The translations under genes and the position numbers were made by a program. Positions 10,342-17,188 of a stretch of DNA of 20,000 nucleotides are shown here, one piece after another. The notes beneath the pieces were generated by a model. The model worked only from the letters and a program-made list of their open reading frames with translations, was not told the DNA's origin and ran no database searches. Location of the stretch: assembly GCF_004010195.1 (NCBI RefSeq), contig NC_057717.1, positions 105,117,444 to 105,137,443 on the forward strand, read 5' to 3'. Every line of letters starts with the position of its first letter. Within the stretch, counting starts at the first letter, position 1. The stretch comes from Chiloscyllium plagiosum (Eukaryota).

Positions 10342-10934
10342 ACCATGCTGGGACCACAGTCCTAGCAAATCGCATAACTAGGGCTGTAAACAGGGCTTTA
10401 AACTAAATAAGATGGGGGCGGGGGAGGGAAGGGTTCAGTTATAGGGGAAATTAGAAAACCCAAATTAAAAGGAGGAGATAAGAGTGCAGAACTCAGAAGA
10501 GGTTATTAAAATCTCCAGCACAGACACAAATAGGGCAGAGTATTTGGAAAGGGTTAGCAATTAAACTTCAAGCACACTGGAGAAACTAATGACAATGAGA
10601 AAAGGGGCAGTTCACATAGGACTGAAGGTGTTATATCTGAATGCACGCAATATAAGGAATAAGGTAAATGAGCTTGTGGCACAGATCAAAATTGGCAGGT
10701 ATGACTTGGTGGGCACCACGGAGACTTGGCTGGAAGGGGATCAGGATTGGGAGCTGAATATTCAAGGATATACATCTTATGAAAAAGATAGGCAGGTGGG
10801 CAGCGGGAGTGGGGTTACTTTATTAGTATTAAATTAAGTCAATAGTAAAAAACAAAGTAGGGTCAGATGGTGTAGAATTTGTGTTTGAAGAATTGAAGAT
10901 CCACAAAAGGTTTAAAAAAAGCCATTGTCGGTGT
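10342..10934 (+). mobile_element. CR1 element A, left part (end of ORF1, start of ORF2 endonuclease)
   Basis: HAGTTVLANRITRAVNRALN* ORF1 end, then LKVLYLNARNIRNKVNEL…TETWLEGDQDWELNIQGY APE-endonuclease motifs. Ends …KKAIVGV at the insertion point of element B. Confidence 0.9.
10397..10433 (+). promoter_or_regulatory. Candidate -1 frameshift signal: T TTA AAC plus G-quadruplex motif (element A)
   Basis: gcT TTA AAC taa in the ORF1 frame (10397-10403), followed by GGGGGcGGGGGaGGGaaGGG at 10414-10433. Confidence 0.45.
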
Positions 10935-11161
10935 AGCTGAAGGATTCTGGGTAATCCAAGATGGAGGACAGGAAAAGTTTCTGGCTGTAACAGCTGCTAG
11001 TTTTAGGTATTGGAGGTGATTTCCTCGAATTCCAGGAGCAGCAATTACTACTTTATATGCTGTTGCATTGTTTTGGAACTCTGGAGAAACAAAGTCAAAA
11101 CAACAGCACTTTTAAAAGAGAGAGGAACAGACAAAGGCAGCACATGGTGAGGTCAAAGCAG

Positions 11162-11177
11162 GAGAGAGAGAGAGAGA
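11162..11177 (+). repeat. (GA)n microsatellite in CR1 5' UTR
   Basis: gagagagagagagaga. Confidence 0.8.
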
Positions 11178-11523
11178 AGAAACAAACAAACTGACACAGC
11201 AGTGAACTTGCACAGTTACTGTCTTTGCTGTATTGCTGGGTATCGGAGTGCATGTGGGAAAACTAACAAACAGTGAAATTCACAACTAATCTTGGAGGAG
11301 CCTGTTTGGGAGAGGTCATAACACAGAAACAGATAAGTGGATATTTTAAGCGTGGCCTTACATTAAGTCTGCAGGATTGAGGAGAGTGGGTTATTTCTTG
11401 ATTATTTGTTTTATTGAGATATGTCTCTTGATTAAACTTAAAATATAAGCCATAACTATTAATTTATCCTGGAGAAATAAGACAGTGCTATTTTCTGGGT
11501 CTGTAGATTGTGAAGGAGCAAAA

Positions 11524-12455
11524 ATGGCCTTTAGTAGAGTGATATGCTCTTCTTGACGGATGTGGGAGCTTAGGGAGGGTTTACGTGTTACTGAGGATTA
11601 TATCTCCAATAAATGCCGTTGGTTGCAAATCCTATCAGATCGAATGGATCAGCTGGAGAGACAGAGGTAATGAGGAATTTACAAGAGCAAGGGGATGTGA
11701 TGGGTGGCAGTTATAGGAAGGGGGAAAAAGTCGCAGACACAGTCACATAGATGGGTTAACTCCAGGAAAGCTAAGAGAGGTAGGCAGTTAGAGCAGGAGT
11801 CTTCTGTGGCTATCTCTATTTCAAACAAGTATGCTGTTTTGGAAAATGTAGGGGGTGATGGATTCTCAAGGGAACATAGCATAAACAGCCAAGTTTCTGA
11901 TATTGAGATCGGCTCTAATGCAATGAGGGGTACGTCGGGTTGCAAGAGATAGATTTTGTTAGGGGACTCTCTAGTCCAAGGTACAGACAGACGTTTTTGT
12001 GGCCAGCAGCAGAAAATCAGAATGGTATGTTGCTTCCCTGGTGCCAGGATCAAAATGTCTCAGAGAGGGTGCAGAATGTTCTCAAGGGGGAGAGGGGCCA
12101 ACAGGAGGTCATTGTACACATTGGAACCAACAACATAGGAAGGAAAAAGGTTGAGATTCTGAAGGGAGATTACAGAGAGTTAGGCAGGAATTTTAAAAGG
12201 AGGTCCTCAACAATAGTAATTTCTGGATTACTCTCGGTGCTATGAGCTAGTGAGGGCAGGAATACGAGGATAGAGCTGATGAATGCATGACTGAGGAGCT
12301 GGTGTATGGGAGAAGGATTTACATTTTTGGATCATTGAAAGCTCTTTTGGGGTAGAAGTGACCTGTACGAGAAGGACGGATTGCATCTAATTTGGAAAGG
12401 GACTAATATACTAGCGGGGAGATTTGCTAGAACTGCTCAGGAGGATTTCAACTAG
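11524..12455 (+). pseudogene. CR1 ORF1 (zinc-finger plus SGNH/GDSL esterase-like), inactivated
   Basis: MAFSRVICSS*RMWE…, ISISNKYAVL, LGDSLVQGTDRRFC, VCCFPGARI, VIVHIGTNNIG, VISGLL, DGLHL, ending AGRFARTAQEDFN*. Multiple stops and frameshifts. Confidence 0.88.
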
Positions 12456-12493
12456 TAAGGTGGTGGGGAGGGGAGGGGGGGGAAGCGGGTGGG
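12446..12493 (+). promoter_or_regulatory. Candidate -1 frameshift signal: T TTC AAC (degenerate) plus G-quadruplex motif (element B)
   Basis: gaT TTC AAC tag at the ORF1 end, followed by GGGGaGGGGaGGGGGGGGaagcGGGtGGG at 12465-12493. The -1 frame continues into the endonuclease. Confidence 0.45.
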
Positions 12494-13911
12494 ACCCAGG
12501 GAGATACTGAGGAAAGAGATCAATCTAAGACTGGTTAAGCTGAGAACAGAAGCAAGTCGAACAGTCAGGGACAAAGCAGAGAACAAGGTAGGACTGATAA
12601 ATTAAACTGTATTTATTTCAATGCAAGGGGCCCAACAGGGAAGGCAGATGAACTCAGGGCATGGTTAGGAACATGGGACTGGGATATCATAGCAATTACA
12701 GAAATGTGCCTCAAGGATGGACAGGACTGGCAGCTTAATGTTCCAGGATACAAATGCTACAGGAAGGATAGAAAGGGAGGCAAGACAGGAGAAGGAGTGG
12801 TGTTTTTGATAAGGGATAGCATTACAGCTGTGTTGAGGGAGGATATTCCTGGAAATACATCCAGGGAAGTTATTTGGGTGGAACTGAGAAATAAAAAAGG
12901 GATGATCACCTTATTGGGATTGTATTATAGACCCCCTAATAGTCAGAGGGAAATTGGAGAAAGGCCAATTTCGACGGTATTAGGCAAGAACTTTCAAAAG
13001 CTAATGGGGGTAGATGTTCACAGGTAAAGGGATGGCTGGAAAATGGGAAGCCTTCAGAAATGAGATAACAAGAATCCAGAGAAAGTATATTCCTGTCAGG
13101 GTGAAAGGGAAGGCTGGTAGGTTTAGGGAATGCTGGATGACTAAAGAAATTGAGGGTTTGGTTAAGAAAAGGAAGGAAGCGTATGTCAGGTATAGACAGG
13201 ATCGATTGAGTAAATACTTAGAAGAGTATTAAGGCAGTCGGGGTACAATTAAGAGGGAAATCAGGAGGGAAAAAGGGGAGATGAGATAGCTTTGGCAAAT
13301 AGTGTTAAGGAGAATCCAAAAGATTTTTACAAATACATGAAGGACAAAAGGGTAACTAGGGAGAGAATAGGGCCCCTCAAAGATCAGCAAGGCGACCTTT
13401 GTGTGGAGCCACAGGAAATAGGGAGATACTAAACGAGTATTTTGCATCAGTATTTACTGTGGAAAAGGACATGGAAGATATAGAAGATATAGAATGTAGG
13501 GAAATAGATGATGACATCTTGAAAAAAAAAGTCCATATTACGAAGGAGGAAGTGCTGGATGTCTTTAAACGCATAAAAGTGGATAAATCTCCAGGACTTG
13601 ATCAGGTGTACCCTAGAAATCTGTGGGAAGCGAGGGAAGTGATTGCTGGGCTCCTTGCTGAGATATTTGTATCATCAATAGTCACAGGTGAGGTTGGCTA
13701 ATGTGGTGCTACTGTTTAAGAAAGGTGGTAAGGACAAGCTAGGGAATTATAGACCAGTGAGCCTGACGACAGTGGTGGGCAAGTTGTTGGAGGGAATCCT
13801 GAGGGACAGGATGTACACGTATTTGAAAAGGCAAGGGCTGACTAGGGATAGTCAACACGGCTTTGTGCATGGGAAATCATGTCTCACAAACTTGATTGAG
13901 TTTTTTGAAGA

Positions 13912-14228
13912 GGTAGCACGGTGGCTCAGTGGTTAGCACTGCTGCCTCACAGCACCAGGGACCAGGTTCGATTCCAGCTTCAGGTGACTGCCTGTATGAG
14001 GTTTGCACATTCTCAGTGTTAACGTGGGTTTCCTCCGGGTACTCCGGTTTCCTCCCACAGTCCAAAGATGTGCAGGTTAGGTGAATTGGCCACGCTAAAT
14101 TGCCCATAGTCTTAAGTGCATTAGTCAGAGAAAAATGGGTCTGGGTGGGTTTTCCTTCGGAGGGTTGGTGTGGGCTTTTTGGGCCAAAGGGTCTGTTTCC
14201 ACACTGTAGGGAATCTAATCTAAAAAAA
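13912..14228 (+). mobile_element. tRNA-derived SINE (HE1-like) inserted in CR1 RT
   Basis: Pol III A box tggctcagtgg (13922-13932) and B box ggttcgattcc (13965-13975); central gggtttcctccgggtactccggtttcctcccaca domain; CR1-like 3' tail ending aatctaatctaaaa. Splits RT at FFEE|VTKR. Confidence 0.92.
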
Positions 14229-15242
14229 AGTAACAAAGAGGACTGATGAGGGCAGACCGGTGGACGTGATCTATATGGACTTCAGTAAGATGTTCGACAA
14301 AGTTCCCCTTGGGAGACTGGTTAGCAAGGTTACATCTCATGGAATACAGGGAGAACTAGCCATTTGGATACAGAACTGGCTCAAAGGTAGAAGACAGAGG
14401 GTGGTGGTGGAGGGTTGTTTTTCAGACTGGAGGCCTGTGACCAGTGGAGTGCCACAACAATCGGTGCTGGGTCCACTTCTTTTCATCATTTATATAAATG
14501 ATTTGGATGCGAGCATAAGAGGTACAGTTAGTAAGTTTGCAGTTGACACCAAAATTGGAGGTGTAGTGGACAGCGAAGAAGGTTACCTCAGATTACAACA
14601 GGATCTTCATCAGATGAGCCAATGGACTGAGAAGTGGCAGATGGAGTTTAATTCAGATAAATGTGAGGTGCTGCATTTTGGGAAAGCAAATCTTAGCAGG
14701 ACTTATACACTTAATGGTAAGGTCCTAGGGAGTGTTGCTGAATAAAGAGAATTTGGAGTGCAGGTTTGTAGCTCCTTGGAGTCGCAGATTGATAGGATAG
14801 TGAAGAAGGTGTTTGGTATGATTTCCTTTATTGGTCAGAGTATTGAGTGTAGGAGGTTGGAGGTCATGTTCTGGCTATACAGGACATTGGTTAGGCCACT
14901 GTTGGAATATTGCGTGCAATTCTGGTCTCCTTCCTATTGGAAAGATGTTGTGAAACTTGAAAGGGTTCAGAAAAGATTTACAAAGACGTTGCCAGAGCTG
15001 GAGGATTTGAGCTATAGGGAGAGGCTGAACAGGCTGGGGCTGTTTTCCCTGCCAGAGGAAGTGGTGGAGGCTAGTACAATTGCAACATTTAAAAGGCATC
15101 TGGATGTGTATATGAATAGGAAGGGTTTGGAAGGATATGGGCCAGGTGCTGGCAGTTGGGACTAGATGGGTTGGGATATCTGGTCAGCATGGACATGTTG
15201 GACCAAAAGATCTATTTCCGTGCTGTACATCTCTATGACTCT

Positions 15243-17188
15243 TATGTACAGGCCTCCAAATAGTAGTCAGGAGCTGGGGTGAAGTATACACCAGGAAATA
15301 GAAAAGATGTGTAGGAAAGGCAAAGTTACAGTGATCATGGGAGATTTCAACACGCAGGTGGACTGGGAAAATCAGATTGGTTGTGGATTGCACGAAAAGG
15401 AATTTGTGGGATGTCTACAAGATGGCTTTTTGGAGCAGATTGTGGTGGAGCCCACTAGGGAACAGGCAATTCTGGATTTAGGATTGTGCAATGAGGCAGA
15501 CTTGATAAGGGAGCTTAAGGTGAAGGAAGCCTTAGGAGTAAGTGATCATAATATATTGAATTTAGTCTGCAATTTGAGGGGGAAACAGATAGCATCAGAG
15601 GTAACAGTATTACAGCTGAATAAAGGCAACTACAAGGGCATGACGGAGGAGCTGGGTAGAATTGATTGGGAGGGGACTCTAACAGGAAAGACAGTTGAAT
15701 AGCAATGGCAAGAGATTCTGGGAGTAATTCAGGAGACACAGCAGATTCATGCTGAGAAAAAAGCATGGTACAGAAAGGATAAGGCAAACATGGCTGACTA
15801 GGGCAGTCAGGGGTAACATGAAAGCAAAAGAGAAAGTATATAATGTGACAAAGAGCAATGGGTAACCAGAGGATTGGGAAGTTTACAAAGACCAACAGAG
15901 GGCAACAAAAAAAAAGAAAGGATTGAATGAGAGGGTAAGCTGGCCAGTAATATAAAGGAAGACTGTCAGAGTTTCTTTGGATATATAACGGGCAAAAGAA
16001 AGGCAAAAGTGGACATTGGGCTGCTGGAAAATGATGCTAGAGAGATAGTAATGGGGAACACGTGAATAGCTGAGGAACTGAATAATTACTTTGCATCAAT
16101 CTTCACAATGGAAGACACGAGTAATATCCCAAAAATTCAAGAGACTGAGGGGGCCATCACCAAGAAGAAGGTGCGAGAAAAACTGAATGGCCTGTAAGTG
16201 GATAAAACATCTGGATCAGATGGACTACACCTCAGAGTTCTAAGGGAGATAGTGAAGGCGTTAGTGGTGATCTTTAAGGAATCACTAGAACCAGAGAGGG
16301 TCCCAGACGGACTGGAAAATCGCTAACCTGATACCCCTGTTTAAAAAGGGAGTACGGCAAAAGATGGAAAATAACAGACCAATTAGCCTATACTCAGTAA
16401 TAGGTAAGATCCTGGAATCCAACTTGATGGATGAGATTTCTGAATACTTGGAAGTGTATGCTAAATAGGGCAACGTCAGCACAGTTTCATCAAGGGGAGT
16501 GTATGCCTGACGAATCTGCTAGAGTTATTTGAGGAAGTAATGAGTAGGTTAGACCATGGAAGGCTGACTATAAAAGTAGAAATGTACTTTTGAGGCTCTA
16601 CAACGCTCTAGTCAGACCACATTTGGATTACTGTATACACTTCTGAATGCCATATCACAGGAAGGATGTACTGGCCCTGGAGCAGGTCCAGAGGAGGTTC
16701 ATGAGAATGGACCCAGGAATGAAAAACTTAACATATGAGAAACATTTGAGGACTCTGGATCTATACTCAATAGAGCTTAGAAGGATGGGAAGGGGTTCCA
16801 GTCAAAACATACAGAATACTGAATGGCCTGGACAGAGTAGACATTGGGACGATGTTTCCATTGGTAGGAAACACTAGGACCCGAGATCTCAACCTGAGAA
16901 TAAAAGGGAAGACCTTTTAGAATGGAGATAAGGAGAAACTTCCTCAGCCAAGGAGTAGTTAATCTGTGGAATTTATTACTAAGCAAGACATTTATTGCTG
17001 GCTGTGGAAGAAAGGTCATTGAGTATATTTAAGACTGAGGTAGACAAGTTCTTAAGTACCAAGGGGACCAAGATTATGGGGAGAAAGCAGGAGAATGAGT
17101 TTGAGAACCTTATCAGCCATGTTTGAATGGTAGAGCAGACTCAATGGGCTGACAGGCCTATTTTCTGTTCCTGTGTCTTATGGTCTTA
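15243..17188 (+). mobile_element. CR1 element A, right part (rest of EN, partial RT, 3' end)
   Basis: Resumes at MYRPPNSSQE…IMGDFN…PTREQAILDL…SDHN, then the RT start. Jumps at about 16560 to DYKSRNVLLRLYNALVRPHL and ends in a tcttatggtctta tail. Confidence 0.88.

Follow-up and report, generated by a model that had tools for sequence, protein, structure and literature searches.

A conserved slippery heptamer at the ORF1 end of CR1-type LINEs of Chiloscyllium plagiosum and its putative role in -1 frameshifting into ORF2

In retroviruses and long terminal repeat (LTR) elements -1 ribosomal frameshifting is textbook knowledge, and a stop codon directly 3' of the shift site is also known from some plant viruses. 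In human L1, a long interspersed nuclear element (LINE), the second open reading frame (ORF2) is translated by an unconventional, AUG-independent termination/reinitiation that gives low levels of ORF2 protein (ORF2p) after ORF1, and the spacer between the two ORFs contains in-frame stops. CR1 LINEs with an esterase-type ORF1 are the dominant retrotransposons of many non-mammalian vertebrates. The present analysis concerns the junction between ORF1 and ORF2 in a decayed CR1-type LINE copy, which lies in a 20,000-nt stretch of the forward strand of Chiloscyllium plagiosum (assembly GCF_004010195.1, contig NC_057717.1, positions 105,117,444 to 105,137,443), hereafter referred to as the window, and in its relatives. 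How LINEs translate ORF2 is described as an open question in a section of PMC3894237, and has been studied mainly in L1 and SART1. For SART1 of Bombyx, passages of PMC3894237 and PMC10275272 report, after Kojima et al. 2005, a UAAUG coupling of the two ORFs with a required downstream structure. The Dictyostelium LINEs TRE5-A and TRE3-A are stated to require a -1 frameshift for ORF2 (passage of PMC5911963), and U_UUA_AAC is an established eukaryotic -1 site, found in coronaviruses (section of PMC5737552).

We propose, with a probability of about 0.62, that working members of the LINE families described below shift the ribosome by -1 at U_UUA_AAC and so produce an ORF1-ORF2 fusion. A ribosome decoding the last two ORF1 codons, UUA AAC within U_UUA_AAC, would occasionally slip back by one base, bypass the stop next to the heptamer and go on as CUA... 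via a linker into the endonuclease and the reverse transcriptase. The output would be mostly ORF1 protein (ORF1p) and little ORF1-ORF2 fusion, in gag-pol fashion. A G-rich element 6-11 nt past the heptamer, mostly consisting of two G-runs and expanded into a long, unstable tract in families 1 and 2, may assist. We infer the slippage, its efficiency and the role of the G-runs from sequence comparison. This proposal extends well beyond the window and has been strengthened there, since the heptamer, its phase, its substitution by another heptamer in one relative, the open -1 frame and the split between heptamer with -1 frame and TGA with 0 frame all agree with it.

The CR1 junction resembles retroviral and LTR gag-pol and coronavirus ORF1a/1b in that a canonical 0-frame heptamer stands at the end of the upstream ORF (in coronaviruses the same U_UUA_AAC), that the downstream enzyme ORF lies in the -1 frame with no conserved start of its own and that little fusion enzyme would be expected. 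Furthermore, one relative carries the alternative heptamer G_GGA_AAC, and a sister layout with an in-frame stop is like that of readthrough-type gag-pol. Unlike these systems, CR1 is a non-LTR LINE, its upstream product is an esterase-type ORF1p and not Gag, its 0-frame stop abuts the heptamer, and its junction shows conserved G-runs and no hairpin; the CR1 shift is moreover a prediction from sequence comparison. TRE5-A and TRE3-A, compared here by description, are likewise LINEs with an apurinic/apyrimidinic endonuclease (APE), have ORF2 in the -1 frame and have had their frameshift inferred, but they belong to another clade and to a host of another kingdom.

All features of the window discussed here lie on the + strand. 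From the window alone, the original prediction had described an ORF1 ending just after a heptamer, a -1 frame running on into the endonuclease with a single stop and no early AUG, and a G-rich tract close by, and these features were confirmed. Indeed, ORF1 ends in GAT TTC AAC TAG at 12444-12455, in the ORF1 frame of 12453, and the TAG is followed by a same-frame TAA (12453..12458). Translated in -1 from 12446, the sequence gives FQLVRWWGGEGGEAGGTQGDTEERDQSKTG*AENRSKSNSQGQSREQGRTDKLNCIYFNARG, interrupted by a single stop, a TAA at 12536..12538. The G-rich tract at 12459..12493 begins 6 nt past the heptamer and contains at least four runs of three or more G, which together with a G4Hunter score of 2.92 gives it a strong G-quadruplex (G4) potential. 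Between this tract and the endonuclease, the linker in the ORF2 frame covers 12494..12601 and in family 1 is without stop and without ATG. The only ATG of the -1 frame between 12300 and 12800 is found at 12704..12706, inside the endonuclease at the position of a TETW motif. The heptamer itself (12446..12452), in phase with ORF1, reads T_TTC_AAC in the window, and TTTCAAC is not of the X_XXY_YYZ type. The window copy is a dead fossil in which slippage is no longer possible, and because it is dead the locus itself has no consequence. The suggestion that CR1 makes an ORF1-ORF2 fusion by -1 frameshifting has held with respect to the conserved heptamer and the open -1 frame of its family, while the site in the window is mutated.

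In order to separate family features from decay, the window copy was compared with its relatives in the genome. A search of the 3.56 Gb genome with positions 12300-12760 gave 5366 candidates, of which 40 were scored and 30, the window copy included, were compared; they constitute family 1. The best matches are 86-89% identical to the window copy, no younger copies above 86-89% were found when these were sought, and the well-aligned copies differ from the majority by ~5-9%. The guess that TTTAAAC is the family form proved right, as it is present in 26 of the 30 copies, and TAG follows in 26 of 30. The majority codons are GAT TTA AAC TAG, which places T_TTA_AAC in phase for tandem -1 slippage. 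The stop at 12536 had been taken for a decay mutation and is indeed private (1/30), with ACA in 24 of 30 copies. The ATG at 12704 is carried by 5 of the 30 copies and is therefore not a family start codon; the position is mostly ACA, with one ACG, which fits CpG decay. Finally, two in-frame indels in the linker, of 12 nt and 9 nt, distinguish subfamilies of family 1.

The same junction was found in five further, diverged families of esterase-ORF1 CR1 in this genome. Family 2 (30 loci out of 3468 candidates, 26 copies being scored at the junction) has TTTAAAC in 19 of 26 copies and TAA immediately after it in 20 of 26, followed by a variable G tract. Family 3, met in the flank of locus L023, has 6138 candidates; its copies are 92-93% identical to the query, and in 19 of the 21 examined the end of ORF1 is GTT TTA AAC TAA, in phase and without a long G tract, and in 17 of these 19 exact-heptamer copies the -1 frame leads into the endonuclease. 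Families 4, 5 and 6 (5, 4 and 1 copies respectively) came from a genome search with ORF1 proteins of sharks and rays; all 10 copies show NNT TTA AAC TAA/TAG, with GGT, GAT, AGT or CGT as the preceding codon, and have ORF2 in the -1 frame. Between families 1 and 2 the identity of the ORF1 C-terminal parts is only ~36-40%. Across the six family majorities TTTAAAC+TA is invariant and the flanks vary, and the heptamer is kept at synonymous positions. The codon before TTA AAC is GAT, GCT, GTT or GGT in different families; thus the amino acid shifts and the T stays. Of the 283 Leu codons pooled from the remainder of ORF1, 22 are TTA, and for Asn families 1 and 3 use AAC less often than AAT. By our own arithmetic, an in-phase X_XXY_YYZ right before the stop would be expected by chance in ~1 of 256 ORFs.

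We examined next the frame in which ORF2 follows, counting the phase with substitution-only anchors, given that indel-tolerant anchors are unreliable by plus or minus one base. Where the phase is not disturbed by a long G tract, ORF2 is in the -1 frame, and no stop interrupts it between heptamer and endonuclease; an AUG is usually lacking there too. In representatives of families 1, 3, 4 and 6 the linker from heptamer to endonuclease measures 138-174 nt and contains 0 stops when read in -1, whereas the other two frames contain 2-5 and 4-10, the family 1 representatives weighing less because they were picked for reading through. Shuffled linkers were stop-free in only 3-6% of the trials per family (P = 0.03-0.06), and no -1-frame ATG precedes the endonuclease in families 4 and 6 and in 3 of the 4 family 1 representatives. 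The linkers of different families cannot be aligned as proteins. From this and from their openness, it seems that ORF2 translation starts at the ORF1 stop or ahead of it, in most cases without an AUG. The comparison between families proposed along with the original prediction thus bears out the heptamer and an open, mostly AUG-less -1 frame as conserved features, but not the long G tract.

To look at ORF1 in other organisms, the 246-aa open ORF1 stretch of locus L024 was used as a protein query and returned 195 proteins from sharks, rays, a chimaera, frogs and others. LN is the C-terminus of 45 among the first 59 ORF1 homologues (IN in one of the 45), and the other 14 are mostly truncated or aberrant models. 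The residue before LN/IN is G, T, C, D, S, A, Y, V, I or H in 44 of the 45, all compatible with an NNT codon, and E in one; one position further upstream, 35 of 45 have E, Q, K or M, none of which has an NNT codon. Such a tail is what a required U before UUA AAC would be predicted to leave, a preference for small residues being the alternative, and the proteins are not independent of each other. That alternative belongs to a wider explanation, in which the heptamer has no translational role: ORF1p would need a C-terminal Leu-Asn with a small residue in front, the codons would simply have been inherited, and ORF2 would be expressed via internal entry, a separate transcript or downstream AUGs. 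It could draw on the residue before LN being mostly small (G, T, C, D, S or A in 39 of 45) and on the AUGs that family 2 and one metagenome contig, L106, carry just upstream of the endonuclease. We consider it very improbable in view of the use of TTA and AAC against the codon usage of the remaining ORF1, of an ORF2 frame that is open for 46-62 codons upstream of any AUG, up to the heptamer, and of the metagenome relatives described next.

A metagenome search with a profile of 27 ORF1 homologues gave 80 loci, 67 of which reach the ORF1 C-terminus and 61 of which have a stop in reach. TTTAAAC-TAG was found in contigs L103, L105, L107 and L109, and L101 ends its ORF1 in tcG_TTA_AAC-TAG. In L106 (positions 1348-1357) the ORF1 end is CAG GGA AAC TAG, that is G_GGA_AAC with the ORF1 tail ..QGN, followed by 225 open -1 codons that include the endonuclease. 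We regard L106 as the most telling case, as Leu has become Gly and a canonical heptamer is nonetheless kept in the same phase and place, which a need for C-terminal Leu-Asn would not predict. These six contigs have 145-350 open ORF1 codons upstream of the junction and 91-235 open -1 codons downstream. Exo_endo_phos was over the Pfam cut-off in the -1 frame of L101, L106, L107 and L109, all four that were scanned. Two further loci, L104 and L112, have the heptamer and end soon after it.

The frame of ORF2 was then tallied for those metagenome loci whose frame stays open for at least 80 codons past the junction. ORF2 lies in the -1 frame in 6 loci, each with a heptamer at the stop (6/6; 5 canonical and 1 GTTAAAC). 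It lies in the 0 frame in 35 loci and in the +1 frame in 3 loci, with a heptamer at the stop in 0/35 and 0/3 respectively. This absence from the frame-0 relatives is a further point against a heptamer without translational role. In the 35 frame-0 loci the junction is of the type ...AAC/AAT TGA CTA..., and the endonuclease goes on in the same frame, which is a readthrough-type layout; their Pfam support is weak (E ~6e-4 to 8e-4) and they are insect-like by appearance. The association of heptamer and -1 frame rests on few independent lineages and not on 44 events, because the groups are clades.

Apart from the tally, the frame-0 loci, such as L120, L127, L129, L139 and L145, have 100-224 codons past the TGA without a nearby AUG, which suggests readthrough. 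Among the database proteins, the ray gene models P0020 and P0121 span the junction with ...GGFKL(N/D).QGAG... and enter the endonuclease in the -1 frame. Some LINE ORF1 proteins bear misleading names, 'hydroxyacid oxidase 2 isoform X1' and '40S ribosomal protein S24 isoform X2' (entries including P0016 and P0006), and a 55%-identical ORF1 copy filed under Pseudomonas aeruginosa is probably a contamination.

Several observations weigh against frameshifting, and those on start codons favour instead a termination-reinitiation, in which the small subunit would restart at or near the ORF1 stop, on an AUG or a non-AUG codon, and make a separate ORF2p, with the G-rich element holding the ribosome. 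In family 3 the stop is part of a TAATG in 18 of 21 copies, with the ATG, itself present in 19 of 21, in the -1 (ORF2) frame. With regard to a conserved AUG or stop in the -1 frame, a point raised with the original prediction, none was found in families 4 and 6, and family 3 has UAAUG. An ATG lies 5 nt past the stop in L103 and L109. Family 2 has no conserved ATG at the stop and has conserved in-frame ATGs just upstream of the endonuclease, and because of these its ORF2 could start by itself. Moreover, an open linker fits any start at the junction, and SART1, with its UAAUG and its required downstream RNA structure, provides a precedent (passages of PMC3894237 and PMC10275272). Family 3 resembles SART1 in its UAAUG overlap, in having ORF2 in -1 and in a conserved element close behind the junction; unlike SART1, most CR1 families here have no junction AUG, and all of them carry a slippery heptamer, for which the SART1 model has no need.

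Because of the UAAUG of family 3, termination-reinitiation stays the main rival, although we hold it to be unlikely. It leaves unexplained an invariant in-phase heptamer with held synonymous positions, the switch of heptamer in L106 and the split by which loci with ORF2 in -1 carry the heptamer and those with ORF2 in 0 carry TGA. Nor is a conserved start apparent, since the codon after CUA is AUG, AUC, ACU, GUA or AAU depending on the family; family 5 has no conserved ATG at the ORF1 stop, and families 1, 4 and 6 as well as L101, L106 and L107 have no start at the junction. The CR1 junction is like that of human L1 in that ORF2 can do without a needed AUG and in the expected low level of ORF2p after ORF1, and unlike it, given the in-frame stops of the L1 spacer, in that no stop interrupts the ORF2 frame up to the end of ORF1. 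Frameshifting and reinitiation could also coexist.

The phase of ORF2 in the families with a long G tract also belongs on this side of the balance. The counts for phases -1, 0 and +1 are 7, 13 and 10 among the 30 family 1 copies, and 8, 7 and 10 among 25 family 2 copies, hence scrambled, because the G tract is unstable in length. For the same reason the -1 phase of the window copy proves nothing by itself, being found in 7 of the 30 family 1 copies. The scrambling may reflect the decay of an unstable G tract, and an untranslated spacer would fit too; indeed, the free length of the tract in families 1 and 2 is most easily explained by reinitiation, with the tract untranslated. Furthermore, copies within a family and many of the database proteins share ancestry, so their counts are not independent events. 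The least-decayed ORF1 copies (L081-L090, L094-L097) have runs of N directly after ORF1 in the sequence data used, which prevented the junction from being read in any intact element of this genome. Apparent genomic ORF1-ORF2 fusions, with open frames of 1100-1380 aa and in one case 3728 aa, were rejected as an artefact of these runs of N. Outside this genome, two teleost L2-like ORF1 proteins do not end in LN, and the ORF1p of ZfL2-1 is reported as dispensable in cell culture (passage of PMC3880073); its alignment from the PDB stops 8 residues short of the chain end.

RNA structure downstream of the heptamer gave no further support to frameshifting. No convincing hairpin was found with RNAfold and shuffles in families 3-6, pseudoknots not having been searched for; families 3 and 4 gave z-scores of 0.2 to 1.0, and families 5 and 6 gave -0.5 to -1.8. 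Folding five contigs to a consensus likewise showed nothing convincing, with an energy of only -3.8 kcal/mol. The consensus predicts, for L103, L105, L107, L109 and L112, a weak 6-bp hairpin (AGGCCU...AGCCU) 29-50 nt past the ORF1 stop, in which one pair is changed on both sides.

The G-rich element was compared across the same families, since the original prediction had named a G-quadruplex as the stimulator of the shift. A canonical four-run motif is present in 21 of 30 family 1 copies, 7 of 29 family 2 copies and 0 of 20 family 3 copies, and a G4Hunter score of at least 1.5 in 29/30, 22/29 and 0/20 respectively. Representatives of families 4-6 score 0.56-1.36 and do not have four runs. What families 3-6 have in common is GCAGGGGnnTGGGAACC, with two G-runs, at +9 to +26, and the contigs from other organisms likewise show two G-runs 8-13 nt downstream of the heptamer, e.g. 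GAAGGGGGAAGGGGA. The conserved runs are thus spaced from the heptamer as a stimulator would have to be. The conserved positions of GCAGGGGnnTGGGAACC include codon third positions and its variable positions alter the amino acid, which looks like a constraint on RNA and not on protein.

In families 1 and 2, by contrast to this two-run element, the distance from the heptamer to the ORF2 anchor ranges from 32 to 57 nt and from 26 to 48 nt respectively, the length of the tract differing in almost every copy. As G4 potential is confined to these two families, a G4 cannot be the general stimulator, and the claim has thereby been weakened. Indeed, the window tract scores high at a spacing of 6 nt, motifs occur in families 1 and 2, and G4s stimulate -1 frameshifting in reporters (section of PMC3919603), but family 3 is negative on both measures, families 3-6 and the other contigs offer two G-runs only, and the long tract is unstable in length and scrambles the reading phase. 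We thus find the G4 as frameshift stimulator quite doubtful. Because it is length-unstable and phase-scrambling, the long tract looks like a derived expansion and not an ancestral signal, that is, a lineage-specific expansion of the two-run element; a G4 may nevertheless act in families 1 and 2. On a side note, the length of the G tract varies far more than the flanking DNA, and slippage in the genome or during reverse transcription could be the cause; G-rich templates stimulate reverse transcriptase slippage in vitro (section of PMC5737552).

Putting frameshifting and the G-runs together with the frame-0 relatives, a broader reading can be formulated, to which we would give slightly less than even odds. 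Esterase-ORF1 CR1 LINEs would make their enzyme as an ORF1-ORF2 fusion through recoding of the retroviral kind, by -1 frameshifting at U_UUA_AAC or G_GGA_AAC in vertebrate lineages and some contigs and by UGA-CUA readthrough in insect-like relatives; the paired G-runs, and not a hairpin, would stimulate, and their expansion to an unstable G4 tract in some shark families would dephase many daughter copies.

As for the window as a whole, the family 1 copy extends over 10941..15246 and was recognised by its similarity to other copies and by Pfam matches to Exo_endo_phos and RVT_1 on the ORF2 pieces. Its 5' limit is approximate, as similarity to other copies begins at 10941-10974 and the compared loci extend to ~10800. 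The ORF1 remnant (11524..12455) has an N-terminal part rich in Cys as well as an SGNH esterase domain; stops and at least one frame change interrupt it. Family 1 ORF1 matches PDB 4c1b, the esterase of ZfL2-1 ORF1p, at E=1.4e-7, the window ORF1 matches Pfam OSK at E=0.0068, under the cut-off, and the ORF1 homologues carry PF13472 and PF17182. The ORF2 remnant (12602..15165), also with stops and frame changes, contains the endonuclease, starting from LNCIYFNARG, and then the reverse transcriptase; its pieces match Exo_endo_phos at E=2.4e-9 and RVT_1 at E=4.2e-18 in Pfam, that is, an APE-type endonuclease followed by a reverse transcriptase. According to a section of PMC13343379, chondrichthyan L2 are without ORF1 and canonical CR1 carry an esterase ORF1; an esterase ORF1 fits, as indirect evidence, with family 1 being CR1 rather than L2. 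The element ends in ...CTCTATGACTCTTATG at 15246 without poly(A), and Tandem Repeats Finder reported no repeat at this 3' end.

The reverse-transcriptase region is interrupted at 13912..14228 by an insertion with a tRNA-like head (GGTAGCACGGTGGCTCAGTGGTTAGCAC...) and an A-rich tail, which, as read from the letters only, suggests a tRNA-derived short interspersed nuclear element (SINE). The family 1 element is itself nested in the endonuclease region of a diverged family 2 copy. The left part of the latter (10342..10940) is 5'-truncated at ~10342, its endonuclease resumes at 15247, and its reading frame (..YRPPNSS..) picks up directly past the family 1 3' end. At its ORF1 end this second copy has an in-phase T_TTA_AAC followed by TAA (10397..10406) and then a G-rich tract at 10414-10433; the ATG at 10412, right after the ORF1 stop, is private to this family 2 copy.

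With regard to previous work, no statement of a frameshifted CR1 ORF2 was found in the available sections of PMC5009743, PMC13343379, PMC4120745, PMC3905857, PMC3894237, PMC3880073, PMC4176376, PMC1925062 and PMC3956500, older papers on chicken and turtle CR1 and on CR1-like esterase ORF1 being outside this scope. The available part of the Atkins 2016 review does not mention CR1, and that of a 2026 survey of the CR1 group mentions neither frameshift, overlap, start codon nor slippery sites. Programmed -1 ribosomal frameshifting itself is known; its canonical form in CR1 LINEs would be a further case if our inference is right. It would give a concrete and cheaply testable answer to how ORF2p is produced in a very large group of elements. 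The covalent ORF1-ORF2 fusion that it implies would bear on cis-preference and on the assembly of the ribonucleoprotein. Finally, the annotation of CR1 ORF2 would change, existing gene models either crossing the junction or stopping there.

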